A DNA stretch of 64,000 nucleotides from assembly GCA_020632665.1 (NCBI GenBank), contig JACKFC010000008.1, positions 71,557-135,556 of the forward strand, read 5' to 3'. The notes beneath the pieces were generated by a model. It saw only the letters and a program-made list of their open reading frames with translations. It did no database searches and was not told where the DNA came from. Source of the DNA: Deltaproteobacteria bacterium. Lineage in GTDB: Bacteria > Myxococcota_A > UBA9042. Positions 9,835-25,436 of this stretch are shown here, in pieces (within the stretch, counting starts at the first letter, position 1; every line of letters begins with the position of its first letter). The position numbers and the translations under genes were made by a program.

Positions 9835-12240
9835 CTAATTGCGGAGCGGCTTGCCGGTCTCGAGCATGTGGCGGATGCGGGCCTGCGTTTTTTCCAGGCC
9901 GCAGAGGTGCAGGAAGCCCTCACGCTCGATGTCGAGCAGGTCTTGCTCGCTGAGCAGGCCGCCCTTCTCGCCGCCGCAGAGCACCTTGGCGATCTGCGTG
10001 CCGACGATCTTGTCGTGCTCGCTCGCCAGACCCGACCAATGGAAGGCAGCCAGCGCCATCTCGAAGGCAGCGAGGCCCTCGGCGCCGGGCAGCAGCAGGT
10101 TGCTCGCCGGGCCGACGGGGCGGTAGCCGTCCTCGATCAGGCGCAGCGCGATCTTCTTCGCCTCGCCGATGCGACGGTCGGTGTCGATGCAGAACTTGTC
10201 GGTCGGCCGCAGGAAGCCCATCTCGAAGGCGTTGCCGGCGCCGGTCGCGACCTTCGCCATCGCCATCGCCTCGAACGCCTTCTGCAGCAGCGGCAGGCGG
10301 TCGACCTTGACGTCCGCCGGCACACCGGCGAGCGCGCGCACCGTCATCTCCTTGGTGCCACCGGCGCCCGGGATCAGGCCCACGCCGACCTCGACCAGGC
10401 CCATATAGGTCTCGGCGCCGACGACGGTGACGGCGCTGTGCATCGTGACTTCGCAGCCGCCGCCGAGCGCCATGCCGTGCGAGGCCGTGACGACCGGCAC
10501 TGGGCCGGTCTTGCAGCGCTGGGTGAAGCCCTGGAAGCGCTGCACCGAGGCCTCGAGCTGCTTCCACGCGCCCTGCATGATCGCGCCGCCGATCATCATC
10601 AGGTTGGCGCCGACCGAGAAGTTCGCGCCGTCGTTGGCGATGACCAGCGCGCCGTAGCGACCGGCCTCGCAGAGGTCGAGCGCCTTCTCGCCGAGCGTGA
10701 GGATATGCTCGTCGAGCGCGTTCATCTTGCTGGCGAAGGCGAGGCAGAGCACGCCATCGCCGAGGTCGAGCAGCTCGGCGCTCTCGTTGCGCTCGATCAC
10801 GCCGCCGGCGGCGCGGACGTCGGCCAGATCGATGCCGGGCAGCGGGGCGACCGGGGCCGCCTGCAGGCCGGCGGTCAGGCCGGTGCGGGCGCCGGGCGCG
10901 CCGCCGTAGAACGAGGTCTTGCCCTCGGCGAGCATGGTCTGCACCAGCTTCGGCACGGCGCGACCCTCGGCGCTGAGGCGATCGGCGACCTTCTGCACGC
11001 CGATGGCGTCCCAGATCTCGAACGGTCCGAGGGCCCAGTTGAAGCCCCAGCGCATGGCGCGGTCGACGCTGACGACGTCGTCGGCGATCTCGCCCATGCG
11101 GTTGGCAGCGTAGACCAGGCTCGACGAGGTCAGCGCCCAGGCGTAGTTGCCGGCCGCGTCGTCCGCGGCGCAGAGGTTGGCGATGCGCTGGCCGACGTCG
11201 GCGGTCTTGCGCGCCGCGCCGAGCGAGTCGGTGCGGAACTTGACCTGCTCGCGGTAATCCCCGGCGGCAGGGTCGAAGACCAGGATATTCTTGCCGACCT
11301 TCTTGTAGAAGCCGGCGCCGGCCTTGGCCCCCGTCGCGCCGGCGGCGACCAGCTTCTGGATCACCTCGGGCAGCGCGAAGACGTCGCGCTCCTCGTCGTG
11401 CGGCAGGTTGTCGTAGCAGTTGCGGGCGACGTGGCCGAAGGTGTCGAGGCCCACGACGTCGGCGGTGCGGAAGATGGCGGATTTCGGCCGGCCGAGCGCC
11501 TCACCGCAGATCGCGTCGATGGCCTCGATGCCGAGGTCGCTCTGCTGCCAGAGCTCGAGCGCCTTCATCATGCCGTGCACGCCGATGCGGTTGCCGATGA
11601 AGTTGATCGTGTCCTTGGCGATGACGACGCCCTTGCCGAGGTCGTCCTGGCAGAAGGCCGACATCTTCGCGGTCACAGCCGGATCGGTATCGGCGCCCGA
11701 GACGATCTCGAGCAGCTTCATGTAGCGCACCGGGTTGAAGAAGTGGGTGATCAGGAAGTGCTTGCGGAAGCCCTCGCTGCGCCCCTCGGCCATCGAAGCG
11801 AGCGGGATGCCGGAGGTATTGCTGCTGACGATGGTATGCGGCGCGCGGTGGGCGTCGATCTTGCTGAAGACCGCCTGCTTGATGTCGAGGCGCTCGACCA
11901 CCGCCTCGACGATCCAATCACAGGCGCCGAGTTCGGCGAGATCGTCTTCCAGGTTGCCGACGCTGATCAGCGCGAGATCCGAAGCCTTCTGGTAGATCGA
12001 GGGCTTGGACTTCGGCATCTTCCCGAGCGCACCAGCGGCGATCGCGTTGCGCCGACCACGGACGGCGGCGTACTCGGGCGCCTCGGCGTCGGCGGGCAGC
12101 GCCGGAGCGTCCTTCGGCACGATGTCGACCAGCAGGACGGGGACGCCCGCCGAGGCGAGGTGCGCGGCGATGCCGCTGCCCATCACGCCGGCGCCGATGA
12201 CGCCGACCTTGCCGATCCGCTTGTTCGGGGTGCTGCTCAT
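9835..12240 (-). CDS. 3-hydroxyacyl-CoA dehydrogenase / enoyl-CoA hydratase (FadN/FadB-type)
   Basis: GAGVMGSGIA Rossmann motif, SSNTSGIP, HFFNPVRYM, C-terminal crotonase GGGCE and GLVEVGVGLIP; adjacent to thiolase. Confidence 0.92.
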   Translation of the reverse strand: MSSTPNKRIGKVGVIGAGVMGSGIAAHLASAGVPVLLVDIVPKDAPALPADAEAPEYAAVRGRRNAIAAGALGKMPKSKPSIYQKASDLALISVGNLEDDLAELGACDWIVEAVVERLDIKQAVFSKIDAHRAPHTIVSSNTSGIPLASMAEGRSEGFRKHFLITHFFNPVRYMKLLEIVSGADTDPAVTAKMSAFCQDDLGKGVVIAKDTINFIGNRIGVHGMMKALELWQQSDLGIEAIDAICGEALGRPKSAIFRTADVVGLDTFGHVARNCYDNLPHDEERDVFALPEVIQKLVAAGATGAKAGAGFYKKVGKNILVFDPAAGDYREQVKFRTDSLGAARKTADVGQRIANLCAADDAAGNYAWALTSSSLVYAANRMGEIADDVVSVDRAMRWGFNWALGPFEIWDAIGVQKVADRLSAEGRAVPKLVQTMLAEGKTSFYGGAPGARTGLTAGLQAAPVAPLPGIDLADVRAAGGVIERNESAELLDLGDGVLCLAFASKMNALDEHILTLGEKALDLCEAGRYGALVIANDGANFSVGANLMMIGGAIMQGAWKQLEASVQRFQGFTQRCKTGPVPVVTASHGMALGGGCEVTMHSAVTVVGAETYMGLVEVGVGLIPGAGGTKEMTVRALAGVPADVKVDRLPLLQKAFEAMAMAKVATGAGNAFEMGFLRPTDKFCIDTDRRIGEAKKIALRLIEDGYRPVGPASNLLLPGAEGLAAFEMALAAFHWSGLASEHDKIVGTQIAKVLCGGEKGGLLSEQDLLDIEREGFLHLCGLEKTQARIRHMLETGKPLRN

Positions 12241-12351
12241 GCGAACTCCTGAAGCTGAGTGGGGTCGCCGACCGCTGCGGCGAGGGCGCGGAAGCTAGCG
12301 TGCGGGGCATCTGGTCGCAAGGTGGTGCAGATGCGGCGCGCGGTTGTGTCG

Positions 12352-12480
12352 ACCCCTCTCTGGCCCGCTGGGCCATCTCTCCCCGCTTAGCGGGGAGAGA
12401 GAAGCGTCTTCGATCCGCAGAGCTGTGCCGGCTTTCCCGTTCTCTCCCTGTTGGAGAGATGCCCGTAGGGCAGAGAGGGT
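12352..12480. repeat. Inverted pair of REP-like hairpin elements
   Basis: 12352-12400 ACCCCTCTCTGGCCC..GGGCCATCTCTCCCCGCTTAGCGGGGAGAGA versus reverse complement of 12441-12480 ACCCTCTCTGCCC..GGGCATCTCTCCAACAGGGAGAGA; perfect 11-bp stem at 12376-12400. Confidence 0.7.
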
Positions 12481-12549
12481 TTTACGGTACGGGAATACGG
12501 CGTGAGTCGGCGAAGGAGCGGTGATTGGCCGGATGCGCCGGGTCCATGC

Positions 12550-13119
12550 TCATTGGCAGATCTTCACCGAAAGGTGCCGATCGGGGGCATCGATCCACTC
12601 GTCTTCGGGCGCGACGAGGTCCTCGCCGCCCTGCCACTCGACGACGACCTCGATATCGTCCTTGCCGAACCTGCACCTGCCGGTCTCGGGGTCGAGATCG
12701 CAGGGGGTCGCGATGACGGTCAGCCGTCCGCGATCCCGGCAGATTCCATCCTTGAATTTTATGAGTGTCCCGGAGTGACGCCAAGCCTTGGGGTCCCACT
12801 CAGGGTAGTTGACGTAATCGCTGCGGCAGCTCATGTCAGAGCGGAAACTCCATGCTTTAGAAAGAACTCTCTTGGCCTCTGTCAAACTCTGTCCCGGGAG
12901 CGGCTCTTCGAAAATCTCGACTTCGTATCGTAGGTCAGCGATATCTCCTGGCAGATCATATGTGCTCGGACATCCACCGCAAATCTCCGCTGTCACAGTG
13001 AGATCGAGCCAGCATATTTCCGTTGGTTTCGCGTAACAGCCTTGCGCGCCTGAGACGAGGATCACGCTCGCCACTGCCAAATGCGCGGCTGCGCTACGCC
13101 ATCGTCGCGCGCTACTCAT
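12550..13119 (-). CDS. Hypothetical Cys-rich exported protein or lipoprotein (189 aa)
   Basis: Basic N-terminus plus hydrophobic stretch ending AQGC; start overlaps stop of upstream gene (ATGAGTAG); GGAGG upstream. Confidence 0.7.
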   Translation of the reverse strand: MSSARRWRSAAAHLAVASVILVSGAQGCYAKPTEICWLDLTVTAEICGGCPSTYDLPGDIADLRYEVEIFEEPLPGQSLTEAKRVLSKAWSFRSDMSCRSDYVNYPEWDPKAWRHSGTLIKFKDGICRDRGRLTVIATPCDLDPETGRCRFGKDDIEVVVEWQGGEDLVAPEDEWIDAPDRHLSVKICQ

Positions 13120-16100
13120 CGAGGCCGCCTCCCTCCGGCAAGGTGCTCATCCAGTGCGCTTTCGGCTTCGGCGGTGGCTCGGGCAGCTTCAATCCGACTG
13201 TCGACCCAGCATCCCGCGACACGCCGCCACCAACGACTTCGGTATCGTCCACCGCAGTGGGATCGGCGACGAACACGGTCTTGGTAGAAACCCTCGCGTA
13301 GCGCTCCTGCCAGCCCGCGCTCTTCGTGCTCTGGATCGGCAGTAGCAGCTCATGCAAGGGCCCCGGCCACGTTGCGGAGGAGGGTAGAGTGTATGCTGCG
13401 GTCAGTCTCTTACCGAGCAAGTCCAACCACGGTCCGAATTCTCCCCACTTGGCTGCGACGCTGGGGTCGAGCAACTCTGCCTGTGCACGGCGCACAAGAG
13501 CGAGCAGGTCACCGTAGGCGCTCACGTCCGCCGTCGTCGAAAACCATAGCAAGAGAGGCTCGGCCTGCGCTTCATCCAGGTACTGAGCAAGCTCTGAATC
13601 GCTAAGCTTCTTCCACGAACTCAACGCCTTGATGAGAGCACTCGACTCCTGCTCCGCGCGCAGCGTCGCGACGGGTGGGGACCCTCCACTCCCGGGAAGC
13701 AACTCCTTGGTCCATGCAACCTCACCGTCGGGAGGGAAGCCCGGCCACGTTGGCGCGGCGGCCATCGCAACCCGCAACGGCATCGTAGCAGGACCAGACG
13801 CTGCTCCGCGCCATGGAGGTTGCGCGATCTCCGAGGCCGCGCCGGTCCAAGAGCCGGGGATACCGCCAACTGCTGGGCCGTGGACCTCGGCGCGAATCGA
13901 TGCGAGCGCTTCGAGCCGGCGGGTTGTCACATGCACGCCGCCGGCCACGGCCTGCGACGTGACCGACACCACACCAGAAACCGGCTCGTGGACGAAATCC
14001 GAATCCGCCGACGCGTTCACCCCAACAATGACACTGCCGGCTGGTGCCGCCTTGGGCCACTTCGCCGGGGGAAGGGCGAGTTCGATCGAGAGGGCGTTGC
14101 CATCGATCGCGCGGAAGCGGGCGACGACAGGATCCAGCTCCGGCGAGACGCGTGCAACCGCTTGCAAGGAAGCCGCGATTTGCTCGTTGAGGCGTTCGGC
14201 GAGTTTCTTGGCCTCATCCTTGAGATCTTCCTCGACGAAATCGAGCACAGAGTAGCTATGTAAGTCCAGAGGAAAAGGCGCGTTCGGGCGGACACGTACG
14301 TCGGTAAAGACCACGGTAGCAAACTCGGGAGGCTTTTCGCCGTCCAACGGTCCCAGCGCCGGCTTCAACTCCGCGCATAGCGACACCTCCATCAACCCTT
14401 CGCCAGACAGCCCATCTCCAACTGGAAGCAAGACCAACTTGATGTTGATTTGGGCGCCGTCCAACCCCAGGTTCTGGACGGTCACCGCGTAGGCCCCATC
14501 TTGCACTGCCTCGCGCAGCGCGCCTTCGGATGCGAACGCATCCCGAAGCTGGCCCAGTGCTTTGGCGACTCCTGCCGCAGCGAGGATTGTGAGCGGCGGC
14601 ACCGCCAGTGCCAGTGCAATAACAACTACCAAACCGAGGGAAACACCAACGAAGAGCGCGATCGCAACCAACTCCTTCGCCGGGATATCGAGTTTAGCGA
14701 ACCACTCGCTCGCGGCGAACGTCACGTTGACGGCGAGCCACTCGAATGGGCTGTCTGCGAGCTTCTTCAAGGTCTTGTGAACGCGTTGCAGACCAGACTC
14801 TGCAGCAACCGGTTCACACACACAGTCCTTGTCGCCACCAGTCTTCTCTTCGGAAACCCCGGCCGCGGGCACTTCGGCCATGTTGCGCGGAAATTCCCAA
14901 ATCATCGTCTGCTCGATGATCGCGGCGAGATAGAAGCGACCGATGTCGACGACCAGCCCCTCCGCCATCGCCTCCGCTCCAACGGCCGGGCCACCCATGA
15001 TGGGGTCCAACTGCACGTTGTCCTGGCTCAGGCGGGCCAAGAATTCCTCCAGTTCAGCTTCGACCTCCGCTTGTCGCTCGCGCTCTGCGACGGCGCTGGC
15101 CGCGCCAAGGATGGCTTGTGCCGCTTGCGCGTTGACGCCTGGTGCCAACGTGGCGAGCGCTGTGGGATTGGCAAGCCAGCTCTGGAGTTGTGCGACGTAG
15201 GCTCCGAGTGTGGACGTTTGTGGATCTAGGGACTGCGCCCCGGTCAGCGTCTGCGCAACGGACGTCCCACCGTCGAAGACGTAGGAGAAGCCCCACCACC
15301 CAGCATCTCCTGCTGCGGTCGTCAGCCTGGAATTGCCCGTCGGAAACACCCTGAGCAACGTTCGAGCTTGGTCGTCGCTAATCCCGAGATCCGCGACGCC
15401 GAGTTCATCGACGCTCATGCCCTTGAAGCTCGGACCGATGCCTTGGAAGGCGTCGAATGCAGCGTGCCGCGTCAAACCGACCGCACGCAGCATCCCACCG
15501 GCGTTGCGGGCGGCGAAACTCTCCAGCAACGAGACGACGCCATACGCCGCAGGCAACCCCGCGGCCCGGCTGGCGAGAGCGCGCAGCGCCACCGTTCCCT
15601 CTTCCCAATCCGAAGCGGGCACGCCGCTCGGAGGTGCGGTTACCCAGCCTTCTGCGTCGGAAGCCTCTGCTTTCGCAGACGGCGTACCTCCTTGGTGGAA
15701 CAGATCGACGGCCAGTTGGCTGGTCCAAACCGACCGACAGAACGATCGCCACGTCACGGCGGGGCCGAGTTCGACGCTCCCCGGACCCACTTGGTCGATC
15801 TTGCCGATGGTGTTGGCTTTGAGTCCGCCCGTTACCTCATGCACGCCGTCCATCCCGAGCCCGATGTCAAGCACCAGCCCGCTCGGAATGAACTCATCGC
15901 TGCCAACGCTCATAAGTGCGCCCTGCGGGGACGTGATCCATGCATCGCTGGCCAACGTTTGCGCGGCGTCGAGCAAGGGTATGGATGCAAGCAAGTTCAG
16001 CATCACTTCGAGCCCCAGCGGCGCAACGGTTGCCGCTTGGAATCGAGAGCTTGCCAAAACCCTGTCTGCTCGCCAACGGGAATCGATCAACCCAGAAGCA

Positions 16101-16405
16101 GCCCACGCACGATGGCACAGCAGCTCCGAACCCTTAATCTGGAACGAGAGATCCAACGGCAAGAGCTGGAAGGTTGAGTCCCCCGGTGTCGGCAGCAGAT
16201 CGCTCGTCGGATCTGCAAGCAGCGGAGCCGCTCCAGCGAACAGCAACTGGACTACGACGCTCGGCACGCCCTGCTTGCTGAGAAGATCACTCGCGGTCGG
16301 ATCGCTCTGGGCAAGGGCGCGGGCAAGTGAGGCGAGTCCGGCCGGAGACCACCGAACCCGCAGGTCGAACCGCCGCACCATGCCGGCTTCGCCGATGAGG
16401 ATCAT
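13112..16405 (-). CDS. Hypothetical 1097-aa protein with central hydrophobic segment
   Basis: 3.3-kb open frame in lower-GC DNA; ATGA overlap with upstream ORF; no recognisable family motif. Confidence 0.8.
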   Translation of the reverse strand: MILIGEAGMVRRFDLRVRWSPAGLASLARALAQSDPTASDLLSKQGVPSVVVQLLFAGAAPLLADPTSDLLPTPGDSTFQLLPLDLSFQIKGSELLCHRAWAASGLIDSRWRADRVLASSRFQAATVAPLGLEVMLNLLASIPLLDAAQTLASDAWITSPQGALMSVGSDEFIPSGLVLDIGLGMDGVHEVTGGLKANTIGKIDQVGPGSVELGPAVTWRSFCRSVWTSQLAVDLFHQGGTPSAKAEASDAEGWVTAPPSGVPASDWEEGTVALRALASRAAGLPAAYGVVSLLESFAARNAGGMLRAVGLTRHAAFDAFQGIGPSFKGMSVDELGVADLGISDDQARTLLRVFPTGNSRLTTAAGDAGWWGFSYVFDGGTSVAQTLTGAQSLDPQTSTLGAYVAQLQSWLANPTALATLAPGVNAQAAQAILGAASAVAERERQAEVEAELEEFLARLSQDNVQLDPIMGGPAVGAEAMAEGLVVDIGRFYLAAIIEQTMIWEFPRNMAEVPAAGVSEEKTGGDKDCVCEPVAAESGLQRVHKTLKKLADSPFEWLAVNVTFAASEWFAKLDIPAKELVAIALFVGVSLGLVVVIALALAVPPLTILAAAGVAKALGQLRDAFASEGALREAVQDGAYAVTVQNLGLDGAQINIKLVLLPVGDGLSGEGLMEVSLCAELKPALGPLDGEKPPEFATVVFTDVRVRPNAPFPLDLHSYSVLDFVEEDLKDEAKKLAERLNEQIAASLQAVARVSPELDPVVARFRAIDGNALSIELALPPAKWPKAAPAGSVIVGVNASADSDFVHEPVSGVVSVTSQAVAGGVHVTTRRLEALASIRAEVHGPAVGGIPGSWTGAASEIAQPPWRGAASGPATMPLRVAMAAAPTWPGFPPDGEVAWTKELLPGSGGSPPVATLRAEQESSALIKALSSWKKLSDSELAQYLDEAQAEPLLLWFSTTADVSAYGDLLALVRRAQAELLDPSVAAKWGEFGPWLDLLGKRLTAAYTLPSSATWPGPLHELLLPIQSTKSAGWQERYARVSTKTVFVADPTAVDDTEVVGGGVSRDAGSTVGLKLPEPPPKPKAHWMSTLPEGGGLDE

Positions 16406-16707
16406 CGTGGTCCGTCGCGCCTGGGATGGGGACGACTCCTACCGTCCCACCCAACCAGCATCTTCCCGATTTGTGCAGCCCAACGATCGGGCTTCGCCCC
16501 ATCGCCGCTGATTCGTACTCCCAGCGAGGCGGGCCCAGGCGAATCTGCATGCACCCTGGCGCTATCCGTGCGGGAAGTTGGAGAGACTGAAGTCATCGGC
16601 GCTCGAGCGCTAAGAACCGACCCGAGCGAAGCAGCATCGGCCCGAACGATCTCCACTTCGGGGCTGCCGATGATGACCTGACCATCACGCCGCGGTTCCG
16701 CGCTCAT
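16402..16707 (-). CDS. Hypothetical protein (101 aa)
   Basis: ATG at 16707 overlaps the TGA of the upstream gene; its TGA (16404-16402) overlaps the ATG of the 1097-aa gene. Confidence 0.6.
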   Translation of the reverse strand: MSAEPRRDGQVIIGSPEVEIVRADAASLGSVLSARAPMTSVSPTSRTDSARVHADSPGPASLGVRISGDGAKPDRWAAQIGKMLVGWDGRSRPHPRRDGPR

Positions 16708-17207
16708 CGACGCACCGTAGCAATCCGGGGCTGCGCTTGGCGGGGAAATGAAACGACGGGTCGGCCAGCGAGGCGTTCGTACCGAGCTAACGCTACCCAC
16801 GCACGGATTTGCACCATCGCGGCATCGCCCCCCGCACTCGCAGCATTGGTCAGGGTTAAGCGACCAACGCCGCCGGCATCCAGATTCGTCGCATCTTCAC
16901 GGCCCAAGACGATCTGCGCCACTGTCACCACATCGCGCGGCAGATCGATGAGGCTGCCAAGGGCAGAGCCGAACCGATCGTCACCGGGACCGTTGATGTT
17001 CGTGCGCTCGATGTCCAAGGAAACTTCGGGTGGATTGGTCGCGTGAAGGCCGAGCACCCGCGCTTGCACGGTGATCAACGCCTGATTGTAGGCGTCGAAG
17101 TTGATGTAGTTCTCCGGCGGGCATGCCCACCAGTTGGCGTAGGCGCTGTCTGACGCATCATCCAGCGTAACCGTTACGTCCAGCCAGAGTTTGGGTGTAT
17201 TTGACAT
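16704..17207 (-). CDS. Hypothetical protein, paralog 3 of tandem trio (167 aa)
   Basis: ATG at 17207 preceded by GGAGGAG; shares motifs with the two upstream ORFs. Confidence 0.8.
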   Translation of the reverse strand: MSNTPKLWLDVTVTLDDASDSAYANWWACPPENYINFDAYNQALITVQARVLGLHATNPPEVSLDIERTNINGPGDDRFGSALGSLIDLPRDVVTVAQIVLGREDATNLDAGGVGRLTLTNAASAGGDAAMVQIRAWVALARYERLAGRPVVSFPRQAQPRIATVRR

Positions 17208-17221
17208 ATGCTCCTCCATCG

Positions 17222-17668
17222 CTAGCCTCGCACCAATGCAACCGAGCAGCGCAGCCACACGACAGCCCATTCCGTTGCCGCGCCGGCGTTTTGCGCGATC
17301 AGCCGGCCGATGCCGCGGGGCAACTTGCGGATCGTACCGGCGGCCCCTGACATGTTTTGGTCCAAGCCGTAGCTGGCAGAAACGACGCCGGCGCCAGCCG
17401 CCGTTCCGGATGGCAAGAGCCAGGACGTCGTTGCGGTTGGCTCCATCGACTCGAACGCCGCTTCGAGCTCGACGCGGGCGGCGGACCGCTGCATGCCGAC
17501 TCTGACCGAAGCTGCGCCCGGCCCGGCCAAGCTGTATTCGAGCGTCAGGTAGGCTTGGTCGGCTTCCCCGAAGTCGAGAAAGTCATGCGGGGCCATCGTC
17601 CAGACGTCCACTGCAGTATTCGAAGCTCCAACGAATACAAGGCCTTCGTACCAGACAAATGACTTCAT
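17222..17668 (-). CDS. Hypothetical protein, paralog 2 of tandem trio (148 aa)
   Basis: RBS AGGAGTGAGG before ATG; shared motifs with both neighbours. Confidence 0.8.
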   Translation of the reverse strand: MKSFVWYEGLVFVGASNTAVDVWTMAPHDFLDFGEADQAYLTLEYSLAGPGAASVRVGMQRSAARVELEAAFESMEPTATTSWLLPSGTAAGAGVVSASYGLDQNMSGAAGTIRKLPRGIGRLIAQNAGAATEWAVVWLRCSVALVRG

Positions 17669-17693
17669 GACCTCACTCCTGTCGAGGCGATTC

Positions 17694-18128
17694 CTAGTTG
17701 GTGATCACGTGCGCCCGCACTCGGATCGCAGCCCACTCACCAGCGCTAAAGCTCGCGGCACTGAGTTCCGTGCGCAAGCGCCCCAGCGGAAAACTCCATC
17801 CGTCCACGCCGAGCCCACCGCCGCTGCCCAGAACAAGGCCCTCGACGCTTTGACCACGCGTCAACGTCATCGATCCAGATCCACCCGTGGTGACGATGTC
17901 GGCCCAGAGGTCTTCGTCGGCAGAGGGAGCTGCTGTGCGCTGCACTTTCAAGCTCGTCTTGGTCGCGCCCGGTCCGACACCAGTGACCTCGAACTCGAGC
18001 GTCGCCGACTCCACTTCGTCGAATGCCAGCCAATGGCTCGGCGGCAGGGTCCACGAAGTTGCTGCTCCCTCGTAGAAGAAGACCCAGAGATCATGCCACA
18101 GCCGGCGCTGTGCTCGACGCGTAGTCAT
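17694..18128 (-). CDS. Hypothetical protein, paralog 1 of tandem trio (144 aa)
   Basis: RBS GAGGAGG before ATG; shared motifs with the downstream ORFs. Confidence 0.8.
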   Translation of the reverse strand: MTTRRAQRRLWHDLWVFFYEGAATSWTLPPSHWLAFDEVESATLEFEVTGVGPGATKTSLKVQRTAAPSADEDLWADIVTTGGSGSMTLTRGQSVEGLVLGSGGGLGVDGWSFPLGRLRTELSAASFSAGEWAAIRVRAHVITN

Positions 18129-18169
18129 GTCACCTCCTCGGCACTCAACGTTTAGTAGGTGGCAGTGAA

Positions 18170-18235
18170 GCAGATTCTACCCCCCCCGTCAACAACAATA
18201 TTTCATTTTATAATCATGTTGTTATGCAGTAAGCT
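18170..18235. promoter_or_regulatory. AT-rich upstream region of the island operon with 7-bp inverted repeat
   Basis: AACAACA (18191-18197) / TGTTGTT (18217-18223) flanking a 19-bp very AT-rich spacer; -10-like TAAAAT and TAGAAT on the minus strand. Confidence 0.5.
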
Positions 18236-18359
18236 GGGGGCGTCTGGCGAAAAAGGGAGAGATGCATCGCACCGCCCTTCGACGGAGATATCGAGAACCC
18301 ACGGCTCGCGGCCGACACCGAACTCTCAACGCATCTTTGGCAAGCCCGCTCGCTCTAGG

Positions 18360-20334
18360 CTCGACTTTAGCGGTTTTCCAGGCGGCGACCAGCCAAGGCC
18401 CTTGTGTACGGTCGGCATCGCGGCGCCGCGACGCGGACAGCGATCAACGGTGATGCTCGGGTTCGACGCCTTGCGTCGAAGCAGAGCTGTTGGGCGCCCG
18501 AGTTCGCGAGGGCGACTTGCTGCAGATCCCGACCGCTGCAGTGCGAGCTAGGGTCGTCAGCAGGCAGGCACACATCTTGAGGAGATCGTTACGTCTTGCG
18601 GGCCGCCGTCGACGGCCACGGCCGTCGACGGCGGCCGTCACCGTTGCGGCAGTGGGTTGTTTCCTGCCCGCACGACTCGGTGTTGCTGAACATGGTCGCG
18701 GGCTCAGATCGACGGCCAAAGAACTTGGAGAGGCACGGGGAAGCCCCCAAGATCGGGTTGCTAACATCGTCACCAAGGAGTTCCCCGTGCCCGACGTCCT
18801 TCTTACCGCGTCGTTCGTCGCTTTGCTATCGCAACTGCGCCCTGTCTTCACTGCGCCTTCGTTCGCCAACTTCGTCGTGCTGCTCGCCGGCATGGTCCAC
18901 GCGCTCGGCGCGCATAGGCTTACCGACGCGCTACGCGCGGCCGGTCCTGCTGCCGAGCGACACTTCACGAGCTACTATCGGTTCTTGTCGCACGCGCAGT
19001 GGTCGCTCGACGAGTTGGGCCTGGCCCTGCTCGCGTTGATCGAACAAGTGTTGTCGTTGCCGGAACTCGAGCTGATCGTCGATGACACGCTCTGCCGCCG
19101 CAGCGGCAAGAAGGTCGCGCTAGCAACGATGCACGCCGACCCTCTGCTCAAGCAAGGCGGTCGGCCTTTCCATAGCTACGGCCACGTGTTCGTCGTGCTT
19201 GCGGTTCATGTGCGGCTACCTTTGCTGGCGCCGACAGGGTGGGCGCTGCCCGTCATGTTCCGGCTGTTCGAAGGGCCGCGCCAAGGCGGGCGCAAAGACG
19301 CAGCGTCCGATGCGCGGCGTCGCAAGCTGCGCCGCGACAAGGACCTGCCCACGCGCAACCGCGTTCGCAAGACCGACCGCAAAGTCGTCGATGGTAGGGT
19401 CGAGCAATGCGCTCCCGAGCCCGATAGCGGACCGTTGCCCAAGGAGTTGCACCGCACCAAGACCCAGCTCGCCGCTGAGTTGATCCTCGCGGTCGCGCGT
19501 CGATTTCCACACTTGCGCATCCGAGTTCTGGCCGACCATCTCTACAACTGCAACGCAGTGCTGAACGAGGTGCTTCGCGAAGTCGACAACGTCAACTTCG
19601 TCACCCGCGGTCGCCCCGATGCGGCGCTGTTCGCCATGCCAGAGCCGCGCAAGCCCGGCCAACGCGGCCGACCCGCCATCAAAGGCGAGCAGCTGCCCAA
19701 CCCCAAACAGTGGGCCGACGAGCACGCCGACGACTTCGAACGGCACGTCGTGCCCATGTACGGACGCGACGTCACGGTCAGGGTGGCAAGCTACCTCGGT
19801 ATGGCCTACCGCTCGCTACCGGGGCGGTTGGTCCGCTACGTCATCGTCATCGACCCAGCCGGCATCTACCGAACCGACTACCTACTATGCACAGACCTGG
19901 AGCTATCGGTCGCAGAAGTCGTCGCCGCCTACAGCCGCCGCTGGCCGCTCGAGCAAACCTTCGAGTGCTGCAAGCAGAAGCTCGGGATGCAGGATACACA
20001 GGTCCAGATGCCGGCAGCGGTCCGACGCCACGCGCCGCTGTCGATGCTGCTCTACAGCCTCGTCGTGCTCTGGTACCTGCAGCACGGCCACCAACTCACC
20101 AACTACGCCCGGCTACCAGCCGACCCATGGTACAAGGGCAACCCGCGGCCGAGCTTCACCAACATGCTCGCGTGCTTACGGCGAGCGAGCTGGGGCGAAG
20201 CATTTGTGGATCCACCGTTGCCCGGCACGGGAGCGACTGAAAATCAGCCGCCGACGACCCGCGATCGGCGGCCGCAACTCGCCCGCTACCTGTCGCGGGT
20301 CGTCGCCGCGGGTTGAAGATGCGCTAAAGTCGAG
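18360..20334 (+). mobile_element. Insertion sequence, IS701-like, 1975 bp
   Basis: Perfect 13-bp terminal inverted repeats CTCGACTTTAGCG (18360-18372) / CGCTAAAGTCGAG (20322-20334); direct repeats TCTAGG at 18354-18359 and 20335-20340. Confidence 0.92.
18787..20316 (+). CDS. DDE transposase (IS701-like)
   Basis: GTG start after AAGGAG; DDE-type motifs LIVDDTL, VLADHLY, YSRRWPLEQTFECCKQKLG. Confidence 0.88.
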   Translation: MPDVLLTASFVALLSQLRPVFTAPSFANFVVLLAGMVHALGAHRLTDALRAAGPAAERHFTSYYRFLSHAQWSLDELGLALLALIEQVLSLPELELIVDDTLCRRSGKKVALATMHADPLLKQGGRPFHSYGHVFVVLAVHVRLPLLAPTGWALPVMFRLFEGPRQGGRKDAASDARRRKLRRDKDLPTRNRVRKTDRKVVDGRVEQCAPEPDSGPLPKELHRTKTQLAAELILAVARRFPHLRIRVLADHLYNCNAVLNEVLREVDNVNFVTRGRPDAALFAMPEPRKPGQRGRPAIKGEQLPNPKQWADEHADDFERHVVPMYGRDVTVRVASYLGMAYRSLPGRLVRYVIVIDPAGIYRTDYLLCTDLELSVAEVVAAYSRRWPLEQTFECCKQKLGMQDTQVQMPAAVRRHAPLSMLLYSLVVLWYLQHGHQLTNYARLPADPWYKGNPRPSFTNMLACLRRASWGEAFVDPPLPGTGATENQPPTTRDRRPQLARYLSRVVAAG

Positions 20335-20335
20335 T

Positions 20336-23300
20336 CTAGGGCGCCGAACCAAGCACCGTCTCGAAGCTCTTCACCGGCGAGCTGCCGTGCCCCAACCCGA
20401 GCCGGGAAGCCGTGTTCAGCCCACAGCAGCGGACCTCGCCGGTCTGGAGCACGATGCAGGTCGTATTCACTCCCATCGCGACCTGCTCGACCTTGTCGAC
20501 GCCCGTCACCTTCATCGGCACCGTCGAGTCGAAGGTGTCGCCGGTCCCCATCTGGCCGTTGGAGTTCTGCCCCCAGCAGCGCAACGTATGGTCCTGCAGC
20601 ACAGCGCAGGTGGTGTGCATCGCCGCGTCGACCTGCGCCACCTTGCTGATATCGTAGACCGCGACCGGGCTGCCCGCGTTCTTCTTGCTGCCGTCGCCGA
20701 GTTGGCCGTAGCCGTTGTAGCCCCAGCATTTCAGGTCGCCGGCCTTGTCGACGGCGCAGCAATGCGCATGACCGCAGGTGAGGTCGACCGTGTCGACCAG
20801 CCCCGCGACGAGCTGCGGCTTGATCTCGGTCACGTTGCTCTCGCTGCCCTGCCCCAACGTCGCGGCGGAATTGTTGCCCCAGCACGCCACCTTGCCGTCG
20901 ACCAGCCGGACGCAGGTGGCGTATTCGCCGACGGCGACCTGGGCGACCTTGCCCGGCATGTCGGCAACCAGCGTCGGCTCGACCACGTTGCTGCTGCCGG
21001 CTTGGCCGAGGGCGCTGTAAGTGTTGCGGCCCCAGCAGCGCACCGCGCCTTCGGTGTCGACCGCGCAGTTGCGGCTGTGGTGGACGTCGATCGACGCGGT
21101 ATTGGGTGCCTTGAGCACGAATTCCGGCACGAAATAGAGCCCCGAACTGGTGCCGAGGCCAATCTGGCCATTGCTGTTGTAGCCCCAGCACCAGGTCTTG
21201 CCGCTGGTGTCGAAGCCACAGCCGTGGTTGCCACCCACCCGTGCGTCGACCATATCCTTGATCTTCTGGGCGGTTTGCAGGGTTCCGGGCGGGTTGACAC
21301 TGCCGTTGACGCCGCAACCACCGTTGCCGCACGCGCCCCAGGCGTGGACCAGGCCGGATGTTCCGACCGCCAAGCCATTGGTATCGCCCATGCTCACACG
21401 CACGGCGAAGCGCTTGGCGCAGACCCCGGCGATGCAGGCCTTCTCGTCGCCGCACGGGGTCAGGTCGGCCAGCGCCGGGTAGACACAGCCCGCCTTGCCG
21501 TCGCAGGTGTTGGCCGTGCACGGGTTGTTGTCGTCGCAGGTGGTCTTCGGACCGGCCTTGCAGGTGCCGCCGACGCACGAGTCGCCGGTCGTGCAGGCGT
21601 CGCCGTCCTCGCAGGCCGAGGTATTGTCGATATGGGTGCAGCCGAGCTTGCCGTCGCAGCCGTCGTTGGTGCACGGGTTGCCGTCGTCGCAGGCGCCGGC
21701 GCTCTTGCCGAAGCAGATGCCGGCGCTGTCGCAGGTGTCGTGGCCGTAGGGGTCGAAGCGCCAGACCGCAACCTTGGGCGCACCGACGCCGCCGTTGCCG
21801 TCGCCGACGCCGAGCAGCGCGGGCCCATCGACGACCAGATCGATCAGCGATTCGTAGCCAGCGCCGCTGCGCTGCTGCTTCCACAGCGTCAGACCGGTCG
21901 CGTCGACCGCGATCGCCGAGAGGTCGCCGCCCAGGCTCCCGGGCGTCCCGCCCGCGAGGACCCAACCCTTGCCGTGCGGCAAGATCCGCCACGGCCGCAG
22001 CGCCTCGCTCTTGTGCACCTGCCAGAGCTCCTTGCCCGCCGCATCGAGCCGGACCAACGAGAGCAGCGGCGCCCCGCCCTCCATCCGCGTCCCGGCAGCC
22101 AACGCACCACCATCGGGGGTCGCCGCAGCGACGCGCAGCTCACGGGCCACGGCTTGGCCGACCACCAACTCGCCGAGCCAGGTCGCGGTGACGGCCTTGT
22201 TGCCGTCGAAGAAGGTCGCGGCGAAGCGGCTGCTGTTGGCCGTCGTGGTCCAGCCGCGACCGACCAGGATCGCGCCGCCCTTCGCCAACGCGGCGACGCC
22301 GTAGCCGGACCGCACCGTGCCGCCGTCATAGGCCTGCCAGCCGAGTGAGCCATTCGCCGCGATGCGGAAGAGCGCGCCGTTGTTGCCCTGGCTGCCTGCC
22401 GCGTAGACGCCGCCGACGCCGTCGGACGCGGCGTCGTTGATCCAGGTCGCCGGCGGCGAGAGCGGGCCCGGGTCGACCAGCTTCGACTTGCCGTCGGCCG
22501 AGAGCACCACGTGCCGCAGCACCCGAGCGTTGCCAATCTGCGCATGACCCGTGAGCGTGATCGTGCTGCCAGCCGAGATGTAGCGGATGAAGCCATTCGC
22601 CAGCCCGGAGAGCGCGACCTGCGGCCAGCCCGGCGCGACCGCGCCAGTCTTGGTCAGCCGCCAGACGACCCACTCCTGGCTGCCATCGCCCGCGACCCGC
22701 ACGCCGGCAACCATCGCGCCGTCGGCGATCGGCGTCACCACGTGACCCCACGTCGCCTTGTCGCCTTCGCCGAACTCGGTGTGAAAGAGCGTGTCGGCTC
22801 CGCCGCCGACGCAAGCCCCGCTCTTGCACTTCGCGCCGACCTTGCACGCCGCGCCGTCGGCGCACTCCGAGCCGTCGGGCGCCGCGACCAGCACGCAGGT
22901 AAACGTCACAGCGCCCGTGCTGACGCATTTCGGCACGTCGCAGGCTCCGCCTTCTTTATCGCACTTCGGCGCCGGCCCAGCGACGCAGGCGCCGTCTTGG
23001 CAGGTATCACCGACCGTGCAGGCGTCGTCGTCGGCGTTGCAGCTCTTGCCGACGTAGCTCGACTTATCCGCCACGCAGGTGCCGGTCTTGGCGTCGCAGA
23101 CGTCGAGCGTGCAGGCGTTGCCGTCGTCGCAGCCCTTCGTCGTGTGGCTGCAGCCGGTCTTGGGGTCGCAGGCGTCGAGCGTGCAGGCCTTGCCGTCGTC
23201 GCAGTCGAGCGCGCTGCCCTTGCAGGCGCCGCCGGCGCAGGCGTCGCTGCTGGTGCAGACCGTGCCGTCGTCACAGACGGTGCCGTCCTTGACGGGCTGC

Positions 23301-25366
23301 AGCGCGCAATCACCGGACTTCGGGTTGCACTTGGCCTTGAGGCATTGGGTGTCCTGGCTGTCGTTGCAGAAGACCACGCCGGCCGGATTCGGCTTGCACT
23401 GCGGCTTGTCGGGGTCGCTCAGGTCGCAATAGGGCAGGCCGTTGCAGAGGTCGCCGTCGTCTTTGCAATCGGCGTCCTGCTGGCAGGGGCAGACGAGCTT
23501 GCCCGGCTTGCACTCGCCGATCAGGCAGAAATCGCCGGCCGTGCAATTCGAGCCGTCCTGACAGGCAGCGCCGTCGTCGACCAGCGTCTTCTTGCATTTG
23601 CCGCTCTGCGCGATGCACAGCGTCTGCACGCACGCCGTGTCGCCGACGGTCGGGCAGGTCACCGCCGTCGCCGGGTTCTGCTTGCACAGCGGCTTGGTCG
23701 GGTCGGATTTGTCGCAGAAGGGCGTGCCGTTGCAGAGGTCGCCGTCGTCGGCGCAGTCAGCGTCGCTCTTGCAATAACAAGCGAACGTCCCGGCCTGGCA
23801 GCCGCCCTGCTTGCAGAGGTCACCGACGGTGCAGGCGTCGCCGTCGCTGCAGGCGTGCGGCCCGGTGTTGGACTCCTTCTCGGGCAGCACCTCGCGGCGG
23901 CAGGCGTTGCCAGGGAGATCGCAGGTCTGCAACGTCCGCTCGACCGCGGTCGGGGTGCACTCGCCGGTCAGCGGGACGCAGGCGTTCTTCTCGCAGGCGG
24001 TGTCGAAGACGCTCGGGCAGCCGATCATGGTCGAGGCGTTGTGCTTGCAGACGGCGTCTTTCGGGTCGCAGAAGAGCGTGCCGTTGCAGAGGTTGCCGTC
24101 GTCTTTGTCCTTGCAGTCGGCGTTGGTCTTGCAGGGGCAGGTATTGGTGGTGCCGACGCAGGAGCCACCGAGGCAGATCTCGTCACCGGTGCATTTGTCG
24201 CCGTCGTTGCAGGGGGTGCCGTTCTTCACCGGGCCCAGCACGCATTGGCCGGTCGAGGGCACGCAAGCGCTGACGGTGCACGTGGTGTTGTCGGCGGTCG
24301 GGCAGCTGATCACCGTCGCCGGGTTGATCACGCATTTGCTGCTCTTCTGGTCGCAATAGAGCGTGCCGTTGCAGAGGTCGCCGTCTTCCTGCGCGTCGCA
24401 GTCGGCGTCGACCGCGCAGCCGCAGGTGAACGCGCCGCCCGAACAGCTGCCCTCCTTGCAGACGTCGTTCTTGGTGCAGCCGTCGCCATCGTCGCATTCG
24501 ACCTTTCCGGCCGCGCCGCCGAGCGCGTAGCTGCAGCCCTTGCCGGCGACGCAGGTCTCGACCAGCAGCTCGGTCGGCTCGGGCTTGCAGCTGCCGTCCG
24601 CCGGATGGCACGCGTTCTTGCTGCAGACCGTGTCGTTCTCGCCGGAGCAGAGCACGACCGTCGCCGGGTTCACCTTGCAGCTGCCGTAGGGCTCGGTCGT
24701 ATCGCAGTAGAGCGTGCCGTTGCAGGCGTTTCCGTCGTCGAATTTGGCGCAGTCGGCGTCCTGCTGGCAGGCGCAGAGGCTCTTGCCGGAGCCCTTGCAG
24801 TTGCCGCCTTGGCAGGCGTCCTCGGCGGTGCAGAGGTCGCCGTCCTGGCAGGGCGTGCCGTCGGGCGCGGCGATGGGAGCGCAGGAGCCGGTCTTCGGAT
24901 CGCAGACGCTCTTGCTGCAGACCGTGTCCTGGCCCTTGTCGCAGACCACGGCGGTCCCGGGCTTGCCGGCGCAGCGGTAGGGCGCCTTGCTGGTATCGCA
25001 ATAGCGCTGCTCGGCGCAGAGGTCGGCCGGAGCGCAATCGGCGTCCTGCTGGCATTCGCAGAGGTCGAGGCCGCCCTGGCACGCCCCGCCGACGCAGCGA
25101 TCGCCGATGGTGCAGGCCTCGCCGTCGTCGCAGGGGGCGAAGTCGATTGGGCAGGGGCCAGCGTCCGCGGGCCCGGTGTCGAGCTTGGAGGTGTCGGGTT
25201 GGCCCGTATCGGCCCCGCCCACGTCGGCCTGGGCCGTATCCTGTAGCGCTGCGGCGTCGGCCGTGCTGTCGGCACCGCCATTGGCCGCGCCGCCGTCGCT
25301 GCCGCAGCCCGCCATCAGCAGGACCAGCACCCAGACGAAAATGCCCAACCGAGCGTTGTTCTGCAT
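20336..25366 (-). CDS. Very large Cys-rich repeat lipoprotein with central beta-propeller-like region and C-terminal RCC1-like repeats (about 1676 aa)
   Basis: Lipobox LMAGC; DDGDLCNG and CDDGNACTxDxC repeats; RCC1-type repeats (WCWGYNSNGQIG, CWGYNGYGQLGDG, CWGQNSNGQMGTG). Confidence 0.85.
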   Translation of the reverse strand: MQNNARLGIFVWVLVLLMAGCGSDGGAANGGADSTADAAALQDTAQADVGGADTGQPDTSKLDTGPADAGPCPIDFAPCDDGEACTIGDRCVGGACQGGLDLCECQQDADCAPADLCAEQRYCDTSKAPYRCAGKPGTAVVCDKGQDTVCSKSVCDPKTGSCAPIAAPDGTPCQDGDLCTAEDACQGGNCKGSGKSLCACQQDADCAKFDDGNACNGTLYCDTTEPYGSCKVNPATVVLCSGENDTVCSKNACHPADGSCKPEPTELLVETCVAGKGCSYALGGAAGKVECDDGDGCTKNDVCKEGSCSGGAFTCGCAVDADCDAQEDGDLCNGTLYCDQKSSKCVINPATVISCPTADNTTCTVSACVPSTGQCVLGPVKNGTPCNDGDKCTGDEICLGGSCVGTTNTCPCKTNADCKDKDDGNLCNGTLFCDPKDAVCKHNASTMIGCPSVFDTACEKNACVPLTGECTPTAVERTLQTCDLPGNACRREVLPEKESNTGPHACSDGDACTVGDLCKQGGCQAGTFACYCKSDADCADDGDLCNGTPFCDKSDPTKPLCKQNPATAVTCPTVGDTACVQTLCIAQSGKCKKTLVDDGAACQDGSNCTAGDFCLIGECKPGKLVCPCQQDADCKDDGDLCNGLPYCDLSDPDKPQCKPNPAGVVFCNDSQDTQCLKAKCNPKSGDCALQPVKDGTVCDDGTVCTSSDACAGGACKGSALDCDDGKACTLDACDPKTGCSHTTKGCDDGNACTLDVCDAKTGTCVADKSSYVGKSCNADDDACTVGDTCQDGACVAGPAPKCDKEGGACDVPKCVSTGAVTFTCVLVAAPDGSECADGAACKVGAKCKSGACVGGGADTLFHTEFGEGDKATWGHVVTPIADGAMVAGVRVAGDGSQEWVVWRLTKTGAVAPGWPQVALSGLANGFIRYISAGSTITLTGHAQIGNARVLRHVVLSADGKSKLVDPGPLSPPATWINDAASDGVGGVYAAGSQGNNGALFRIAANGSLGWQAYDGGTVRSGYGVAALAKGGAILVGRGWTTTANSSRFAATFFDGNKAVTATWLGELVVGQAVARELRVAAATPDGGALAAGTRMEGGAPLLSLVRLDAAGKELWQVHKSEALRPWRILPHGKGWVLAGGTPGSLGGDLSAIAVDATGLTLWKQQRSGAGYESLIDLVVDGPALLGVGDGNGGVGAPKVAVWRFDPYGHDTCDSAGICFGKSAGACDDGNPCTNDGCDGKLGCTHIDNTSACEDGDACTTGDSCVGGTCKAGPKTTCDDNNPCTANTCDGKAGCVYPALADLTPCGDEKACIAGVCAKRFAVRVSMGDTNGLAVGTSGLVHAWGACGNGGCGVNGSVNPPGTLQTAQKIKDMVDARVGGNHGCGFDTSGKTWCWGYNSNGQIGLGTSSGLYFVPEFVLKAPNTASIDVHHSRNCAVDTEGAVRCWGRNTYSALGQAGSSNVVEPTLVADMPGKVAQVAVGEYATCVRLVDGKVACWGNNSAATLGQGSESNVTEIKPQLVAGLVDTVDLTCGHAHCCAVDKAGDLKCWGYNGYGQLGDGSKKNAGSPVAVYDISKVAQVDAAMHTTCAVLQDHTLRCWGQNSNGQMGTGDTFDSTVPMKVTGVDKVEQVAMGVNTTCIVLQTGEVRCCGLNTASRLGLGHGSSPVKSFETVLGSAP

Positions 25367-25436
25367 CGAATGCTCCCGAAAACCACCAACGCAACCAGCC
25401 ACGTCGGCGGTCATCGTGGCGCATTCCCGGGTCTCG

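Follow-up and report, generated by a model that had tools for sequence, protein, structure and literature searches.

Three tandem paralogs of a rare jelly-roll-like protein family from Myxococcota precede an exchangeable set of downstream genes

Three small adjacent genes, here called A, B and C, are encoded on the minus strand of a 64,000-nucleotide stretch of contig JACKFC010000008.1 of a Deltaproteobacteria bacterium (the whole stretch is referred to as the window). By sequence comparison, A, B and C are deeply diverged full-length paralogs of one family that is rare, unnamed and new to the curated libraries that we searched. The trio recurs in the same order in related genomes and the genes behind C, from comparisons between loci, are replaced wholesale; this exchange is the main clue to function and tentatively suggests a carrier for exchangeable effectors. 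The three genes are:

Paralog A: 17694..18128, minus strand; 144 aa, first position, member of the jelly-roll-like family, ribosome-binding site GAGGAGG.
Paralog B: 17222..17668, minus strand; 148 aa, second position, the most conserved type.
Paralog C: 16704..17207, minus strand; 167 aa, third position, predicted jelly-roll core with a basic C-terminal tail of ~25 aa.

The initial annotation had described the region as three tandem, diverged paralogs of an unrecognised family, and had proposed pairwise HHalign comparisons and a profile search as checks. BLASTP between the three proteins returned E-values of 4e-9 (A-B), 1e-7 (A-C) and 0.12 (B-C), and profile-profile comparison with hhalign, using small orthologue alignments, was significant for all three pairs over approximately the full length (A-B 7.2e-20, B-C 2.2e-14, A-C 4.6e-11). 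The similarity is far above chance in both comparisons and paralogy is thus established; each motif that had been quoted as common to the three proteins is also found in the translations. The annotated coordinates are correct overall, with the start of C as the one point of revision: C most likely begins at 17207 and not at 17270, the start of a 188-aa open reading frame (ORF), as the ATG at 17207 directly follows the sequence GGAGGAG and opens the N-terminus MSNTPKLWLD..., which is common to the orthologues. Ribosome-binding sites had been noted too, and Shine-Dalgarno-like sequences indeed stand upstream of A, B and C (GAGGAGGTGACATG, ACAGGAGTGAGGTCATG and GGAGGAGCATATG). The spacers are short (25 nt between A and B, 14 nt between B and C). 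A hydropathy scan of A, B and C found no 19-residue window above 1.6, in agreement with the proposed absence of signal peptides, and likewise no trans-membrane segment; cysteines are scarce (none in A, one each in B and C). A is 62-66% identical to its orthologues. In comparison with L044, a contig of a near-identical strain, the ratio of non-synonymous to synonymous substitution rates (dN/dS) is 0.19 for A, 0.21 for B and 0.24 for C: all three genes are under purifying selection.

A 17-member profile searched against 1.84 billion cluster representatives identified 74 proteins at E <= 1e-3. The family is present in nine of 61 related whole genomes, all nine belonging to one GTDB family, and a phylum-wide sample of 401 genomes contained it in eight genomes of the same GTDB family, with one weak match elsewhere. 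The host genome has seven MYXO-CTERM signals (none in 14 control genomes), which fits Myxococcota. The view that the family had not been recognised before has held: A, B and C have no credible match in Pfam, NCBIfam, PHROG or PADLOC (the sole Pfam row is Chorion_S16 with 17.6 bits versus a cut-off of 25), 54 family members scanned singly against Pfam gave isolated sub-threshold rows only, the same 54 gave only isolated matches against PHROGs, all above E = 4e-4, and the family profile matched nothing below E = 0.3 among PDB sequences. An origin from a virus or plasmid was considered and rejected: tblastn and pattern scans of plasmids, INPHARED phages, IMG/VR and metagenome contigs were all empty. 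A search of genome contigs for the B-type subset returned two loci, both on contigs that were already known.

Two records with orthologous trios carry unexpected taxon labels, namely CAZPHC010000001.1 (L039/L011; 'uncultured Enterobacteriaceae bacterium') and JBEARB010000140.1 (L040; 'Pseudomonadota bacterium'). The high GC content of this DNA, and the fact that the records are placed next to the MYXO-CTERM-bearing host genome, suggest that both labels are wrong.

The initial annotation had further proposed a jelly-roll-like beta-sandwich, and structure prediction agrees with this at the level of the fold class only. AlphaFold2, given a 17-sequence alignment, modelled A as an eight-stranded beta-sandwich with a mean predicted local distance difference test (pLDDT) of 83.2 and a predicted template modelling score (pTM) of 0.78. 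Foldseek found no close structure to this model in the PDB (best E ~0.009, TM values 0.33-0.51); the neighbours are the MAM domain of meprin, domain III of Cry11Aa, Cry5B and Cry8Ea1, the carbohydrate-binding module (CBM) CBM4, nanovirus and picornavirus capsid proteins, Ena2A and the P-domains of furin and kexin. Among predicted viral structures (BFVD), the matches are unnamed small proteins and binding modules of tail fibres (best E 9e-4, TM 0.56). Those neighbours that are jelly-rolls of binding type (MAM, Cry domain III, CBM4 and the phage tail-fibre modules) have TM values of 0.4-0.56. The model thus supports a jelly-roll of the galactose-binding-domain-like type for A, with generic neighbours that are informative for the fold class only. 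A natural A-B fusion was modelled as two sandwiches (pLDDT 76, pTM 0.65), and Foldseek matched this model only to tandem beta-sandwich proteins with poor global superposition (TM 0.2-0.28); a double-jelly-roll capsid or another known assembly is not supported by this search.

The order A-B-C recurs in at least nine loci of several genera: the window, contig C8 of the host genome, the same-genus genome G001, G012, G005 (twice), G023, G034, GCA_038135435.1 and the near-identical strain contig L044. In a maximum-likelihood tree built from 35 family domains, the second-position genes of six loci form one clade (support 97/97) and the third-position genes of four loci form another (90/95), while the first-position genes group weakly; overall, none of 200 shuffles of the position labels clustered as well as the real ones. 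Exceptions are the trios of G034 and G005, which lie outside the position-specific clades. Approximately unbiased (AU) tests rejected monophyly of the eight middle copies taken together (p = 0.005) and were not significant for the first (p = 0.055) and third (p = 0.23) positions. In several lineages, adjacent copies are fused in one reading frame: A-B in G034 and in P0020, P0031 and P0045, B-C in G005 and P0024, with further natural fusions of adjacent copies in P0023, P0079 and P0090. The conserved order, the position-specific clades, the fusions and the purifying selection make it plausible that A, B and C form a hetero-oligomer, and the pTM of the fusion model is a further hint; this evidence gives no specific pointer to a trimer.

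One trio, in G002 (L030 2931-3400 / L048 10525-10803), has an in-frame TAG inside the first copy and a truncated third paralog, followed by a reverse-transcriptase fragment with a weak RVT_1 match and group II intron-like sequence. By these features it is a decaying copy of the cassette.

Downstream of C, the window contains three further genes on the same strand:

Gene D: 16402..16707, minus strand; 101 aa, small orphan protein.
Gene E: 13112..16405, minus strand; 1097 aa, orphan cargo protein.
Gene F: 12550..13119, minus strand; 189 aa, exported Cys-rich protein, predicted signal peptide ending ...VSGAQG|C, 9 Cys.

The start of D overlaps the stop of C (ATGA), the stop of D overlaps the start of E (ATGA) and the start of F overlaps the end of E by 8 nt; judged from these junctions, the trio heads a six-gene, translationally coupled operon, A to F. 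D has an atypical GC content by codon position (0.69/0.64/0.60) and is still probably coding, since the length is kept in L044, with no indels and a dN/dS of 0.30; it has no credible match in Pfam, NCBIfam, PHROGs or PADLOC. E (dN/dS 0.28 versus L044) has, by hydropathy, one central hydrophobic hairpin of ~44 residues (residues 574-617) and no export signal. There is no match to E in Pfam, PHROG, NCBIfam or PADLOC, and no homologue of it in a word search of 5.8 billion proteins, in 40 related genomes or among PDB sequences; F has no Pfam match.

It is these downstream genes that differ between loci, and the difference is sharpest between two orthologous loci, the second trio of the host genome (L009) and its counterpart in G001 (L025), which have the trio and the flanking genes on both sides in common:

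Second complete trio in the host genome: contig C8:54150-57500 (L009 8151-11491).

DNA homology between L009 and L025 (79.5%) breaks off precisely where C ends and sets in again at the next common gene. Between these two points, L009 encodes a protein of 422 aa, with a trypsin-like match that stays below threshold, and behind it an exported protein of 205 aa with a DAV repeat; in L025, a small ORF is followed by an orphan of 643 aa, unrelated to the L009 cargo, and by a Cys-rich lipoprotein of 149 aa (LSGC lipobox, 16 Cys). GC content rises from the cargo (0.54-0.57) over the trio (0.60-0.61) to the flanks (0.70). The same pattern is found at L011 and L045: their A, B and C have 62-75% identity to those of the window, the small ORF behind the trio is a different one, and the proteins after it (436 aa and 374 aa) are unrelated. 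tblastn with D, E and F found nothing in any other locus; small ORFs occupy the position of D in L011, L045 and L025. Three independent cargo sets end with an exported Cys-rich protein or lipoprotein, the start of which abuts or overlaps the big gene. Among the other cargoes, Pfam identified a Rhodanese domain in a 709-aa protein and TPR matches below the cut-off in a 400-aa protein.

Family members that are present as a single copy form a clade of their own (100/99) and precede one or two paralogous orphans of 750-930 aa, interleaved with secreted Cys-rich proteins, with invariant residues Cys486, His544 and Asp562; these orphans are possibly papain- or transglutaminase-like hydrolases. Such loci are L029, L032, L033 and one in the host genome:

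Single-copy locus in the host genome: contig C13:58509-66571 (L010 8509-16571).

A PIN toxin pair and a P-loop (zeta-toxin-like) gene are encoded just upstream of the C13 locus.

The ORF after the third paralog tends to begin with R-x(1-3)-[IVA]-x-[IV]-G-x-[PSRE] in proteins that are otherwise unrelated, a pattern of low statistical weight. Examples are RRDGQVIIGSPEVE, RWPRITIGAPRDA, RRPVATIGAPRPS, RDRIGIVVGDRVS and GARIGVTVGESRG, and the sites are:

Start motif, N-terminus of D: window 16650-16707.
Start motif: L011 10964-11287.
Start motif: L045 2625-2963.
Start motif: L025 7494-7820.
Start motif: L009 9600-9660.

Possibly, this start motif serves the trio as a docking strand.

The operon lies within a larger segment that is missing from the same-genus genome G001, together with a leader and an insertion sequence (IS):

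Accessory segment: 12304..20336; six-gene operon (6 kb) plus IS (2 kb), missing from G001.
Leader: 18129..18353, minus strand; conserved non-coding region with an AT-rich patch, upstream of A.
IS element: 18354..20340, plus strand; 608-aa transposase ORF at 18490-20316, between the stop codon of a giant gene and the operon leader.

On contig C270 of G001, blastn homology spans window positions 9835-12303 and restarts at 20337, with ~70 bp between the two blocks: there, a large conserved ORF (window 9835-12240), putatively fadB-like by our reading, lies ~70 bp from a giant Cys-rich/RCC1 gene. As the flanks are near-contiguous in G001, window 12304-20336 is an accessory segment. Its GC content is 0.60-0.66 versus ~0.70 in the flanks, and a search for att-like repeats at its ends returned 10-bp chance matches only. 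The near-strain contig L044 is syntenic except for the IS, which it lacks, and the insertion, which left the conserved leader intact, is thus recent; by this comparison, the IS is a later arrival outside the system. In L044, a 227-nt spacer separates the giant gene from A; the leader aligns with this spacer and is the probable promoter region; a scan for the sigma-70 consensus upstream of A found no match. Just downstream of F (minus strand) and still within the accessory segment, two G+C-rich inverted repeats, CCATCTCTCCCCGCTTAGCGGGGAGAGA and CTCTCCCTGTTGGAGAGATGCCCGTAGGGCAGAGAGGG, lie at window 12370-12470; these may be terminators of the operon or repeat elements.

Genes of giant surface proteins with Cys-rich repeats stand beside the module in four loci (window 20336-25414, minus strand; L037 1709-3649; L028 527-7848; L048 4474-8139). 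The DUF4215 repeat has 46 matches in the host genome, and the giant gene of the window is not among them. As such genes are numerous in these genomes, no association between the module and the giant genes is claimed; the adjacency may reflect chance or an insertion preference.

The replaceable set stands behind a conserved module, is sharply bounded, has a lower GC content, consists of a large protein that has no export signal followed by a small exported Cys-rich protein and is present in a strain-specific manner, and it is from these features that we read the locus as an effector/immunity cassette. Our preferred reading, which we hold tentatively and as one possibility, is that A, B and C assemble into a lectin-like hetero-oligomer that carries or targets exchangeable toxin-like effectors, with the exported product of the last gene as the immunity partner. 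A, B and C would be three specialised subunits of one soluble jelly-roll complex and would form the constant part of a mobile cassette, and the variable part directly 3' of C (in the window D, the hairpin-bearing E, and F) would be the effector set. The hetero-oligomer would bind the effector, perhaps via a small D-type protein or the N-terminus of the effector, and would act as a carrier or as a lectin-like module for target recognition in antagonism against other cells; the exported product of the last gene would shield the producer's own envelope. The physical association of A, B and C, the toxicity of the cargo and the exit from the cell are inferred, as is the immunity role of F, for which position alone speaks. 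It is rather unlikely that A/B/C is an unprecedented hetero-oligomeric jelly-roll particle or ring that serves as a delivery machine independent of any secretion system, and just as doubtful that such a machine would be a modular, multi-subunit bacteriocin-like carrier, confined to a little-studied Myxococcota lineage, that accepts unrelated effectors via a D-type adaptor or the effector N-terminus.

Several observations speak against the preferred carrier reading. None of the cargoes has a known toxin domain (one has the Rhodanese domain, the rest are without significant Pfam match), searches of PADLOC, PHROG and NCBIfam were empty for A to E, and both F and the exported protein of L009 lack a canonical lipobox. 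Neither A, B and C nor the cargo have signal peptides, and the sheath gene TssC/VipB (PF05943) of the type VI secretion system (T6SS) was found in none of the 23 host-family genomes searched, seven of which are family-positive (G000, G001, G002, G005, G006, G012 and G019); two genomes of other families have it. Thus, no export route is recognised. A link to T6SS, with the trio serving an effector as adaptor, chaperone or Hcp-like carrier, is rejected on the absence of TssC from these 23 host-family genomes. The model of the two-domain fusion resembles no known assembly (TM 0.2-0.28). Finally, some loci hold only two copies or one and, as the AU test rejects a single clade of middle copies, a single ancient triplication cannot, on the present tree, account for every trio.

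The absence of an export signal from every protein but the last would also be expected if the system acted inside the cell, with A/B/C as sensor or scaffold of an anti-phage or abortive-infection system and the swappable downstream proteins (the one with the membrane hairpin, the protease-like one and the Cys-His-Asp enzyme) killing the producer. A constant module with swapped effectors, low GC and a patchy distribution is typical of defence islands, toxin-antitoxin modules and a PD-(D/E)XK/AAA gene adjoin some loci, and effectors commonly have a membrane hairpin or a protease-like domain. However, A to E have no PADLOC match, nucleotide-binding, nuclease and signalling domains are missing throughout, an exported Cys-rich last gene that recurs is unusual for a defence system and the family was not found in phage or plasmid collections; we consider such an intracellular conflict system unlikely.

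A structural role is very unlikely in our view. Three jelly-roll proteins build pseudo-T=3 capsids, and the three subunits might similarly self-assemble to a capsid-like shell or an Ena-like fibre that encloses or displays the downstream proteins: the Foldseek neighbours include single jelly-roll capsid proteins and Ena2A, three diverged paralogs are maintained in a fixed order, and the genes of Ena1A, Ena1B and Ena1C, which are small jelly-roll paralogs too, also stand together. Yet the similarity in structure is weak and generic (TM 0.33-0.5), neither DUF3992 nor another Pfam family is matched by any member, and the Cys-based connector is missing from A, B and C with their 0-1 Cys; moreover, the operon has no packaging ATPase, portal or other virion gene, the phage and IMG/VR collections gave no matches, and a surface fibre would lack an export signal. 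The position immediately upstream of large cargo genes would further fit accessory factors for folding or stabilisation (chaperone-, adaptor- or P-domain-like) that would assist the adjacent large protein, each on its own or as homo-oligomers, with no delivery complex formed, and both the single-copy members, which precede one conserved cargo family, and the jelly-roll P-domain of furin and kexin among the structural neighbours point in this direction. Dedicated chaperones, however, usually co-vary with their client, whereas here the trio is conserved and the clients are unrelated, and three distinct subunits have been maintained over long periods, so that we regard this explanation, too, as very unlikely. 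The remaining probability, outside the effector carrier and these three alternatives, is left to functions not yet imagined.

If the trio is a carrier, it would represent a new way to package and aim exchangeable effectors in bacteria that have no T6SS, and it would open an orphan effector/immunity-like set to study, including the hairpin-bearing 1097-aa protein, the protease-like protein and the Cys-His-Asp enzymes. Even without a function, this is a clean new protein family, whose fold is predicted with confidence, whose three-subunit arrangement is conserved and in which natural fusions occur.

Several known systems were compared with the trio. For viral single-jelly-roll capsids, the capsid matches of A reach only TM 0.33-0.5, the operon consists of orphans only, it is flanked by an ORF conserved with the sister species and by a giant lipoprotein gene, and INPHARED and IMG/VR were empty, so a viral capsid module is rejected. 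CBM4, CBM22 and the MAM domain of meprin are the best structural neighbours and have the fold class in common with A, but there is neither a sequence match to them nor are sugar-binding residues identifiable in A/B/C; CBMs are normally domains of secreted enzymes, whereas A/B/C are free-standing, made in the cytoplasm and occur in threes.

In the Bacillus cereus group, the subunits Ena1A, Ena1B and Ena1C (DUF3992) of the endospore appendages are jelly-roll paralogs, small and with one domain each, that are encoded together and co-assemble (bioRxiv 10.1101/2020.08.21.260141). The joint encoding of small jelly-roll paralogs is a likeness to A, B and C, and Ena2A is among the Foldseek matches of A. 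In contrast to Ena, however, A, B and C lack both DUF3992 and the Cys-Cys N-terminal connector (0-1 Cys), the host is a Gram-negative, Myxococcota-like bacterium, and the genes are linked to variable cargo.

Cassettes of polymorphic toxins and their immunity proteins reportedly (Zhang, Aravind and co-workers, 2012) have a constant trafficking part, a toxic part that can be exchanged and, downstream of it, a cognate gene. The constant part of the present system would be three separate proteins, unlike theirs, which is the N-terminus of the toxin polypeptide; the cargo has no recognisable toxin or immunity domain, no secretion system associated with the genes was identified and T6SS is absent. 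What the two have in common is cassette exchange behind a conserved module (the cargo of the window type and that of L011/L045 differ as well), a sharp break point, as between L009 and L025 at the stop of C, a variable part of lower GC and a patchy, strain-specific distribution.

PirA is a jelly-roll equivalent to Cry domain III; it is the small subunit beside a larger, membrane-active partner and has been proposed to function in target recognition (PMC5742833). A, B and C are not members of this system by sequence or by type of partner: there is no sequence relationship (no Pfam match for 54 members), three diverged subunits and an additional exported third component stand here versus one PirA, E, without an endotoxin-type or other Pfam domain and without a PDB sequence match, gives no sequence sign of a Cry domain I-like helical pore-forming bundle or a domain II-like beta domain, and the partners are unrelated between loci. 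In structure, the fold class of A agrees, and A matches Cry domain III chains at E ~0.01 and TMq 0.38-0.46; the similarity is generic (TM ~0.45), and PirA is not among the top 50 and gives no sequence signal. By arrangement, however, PirA/PirB is the closest functional analogy: both systems would encode a small, eight-stranded, galactose-binding-domain-like jelly-roll beside a larger partner, which in the window is E with its long hydrophobic hairpin.

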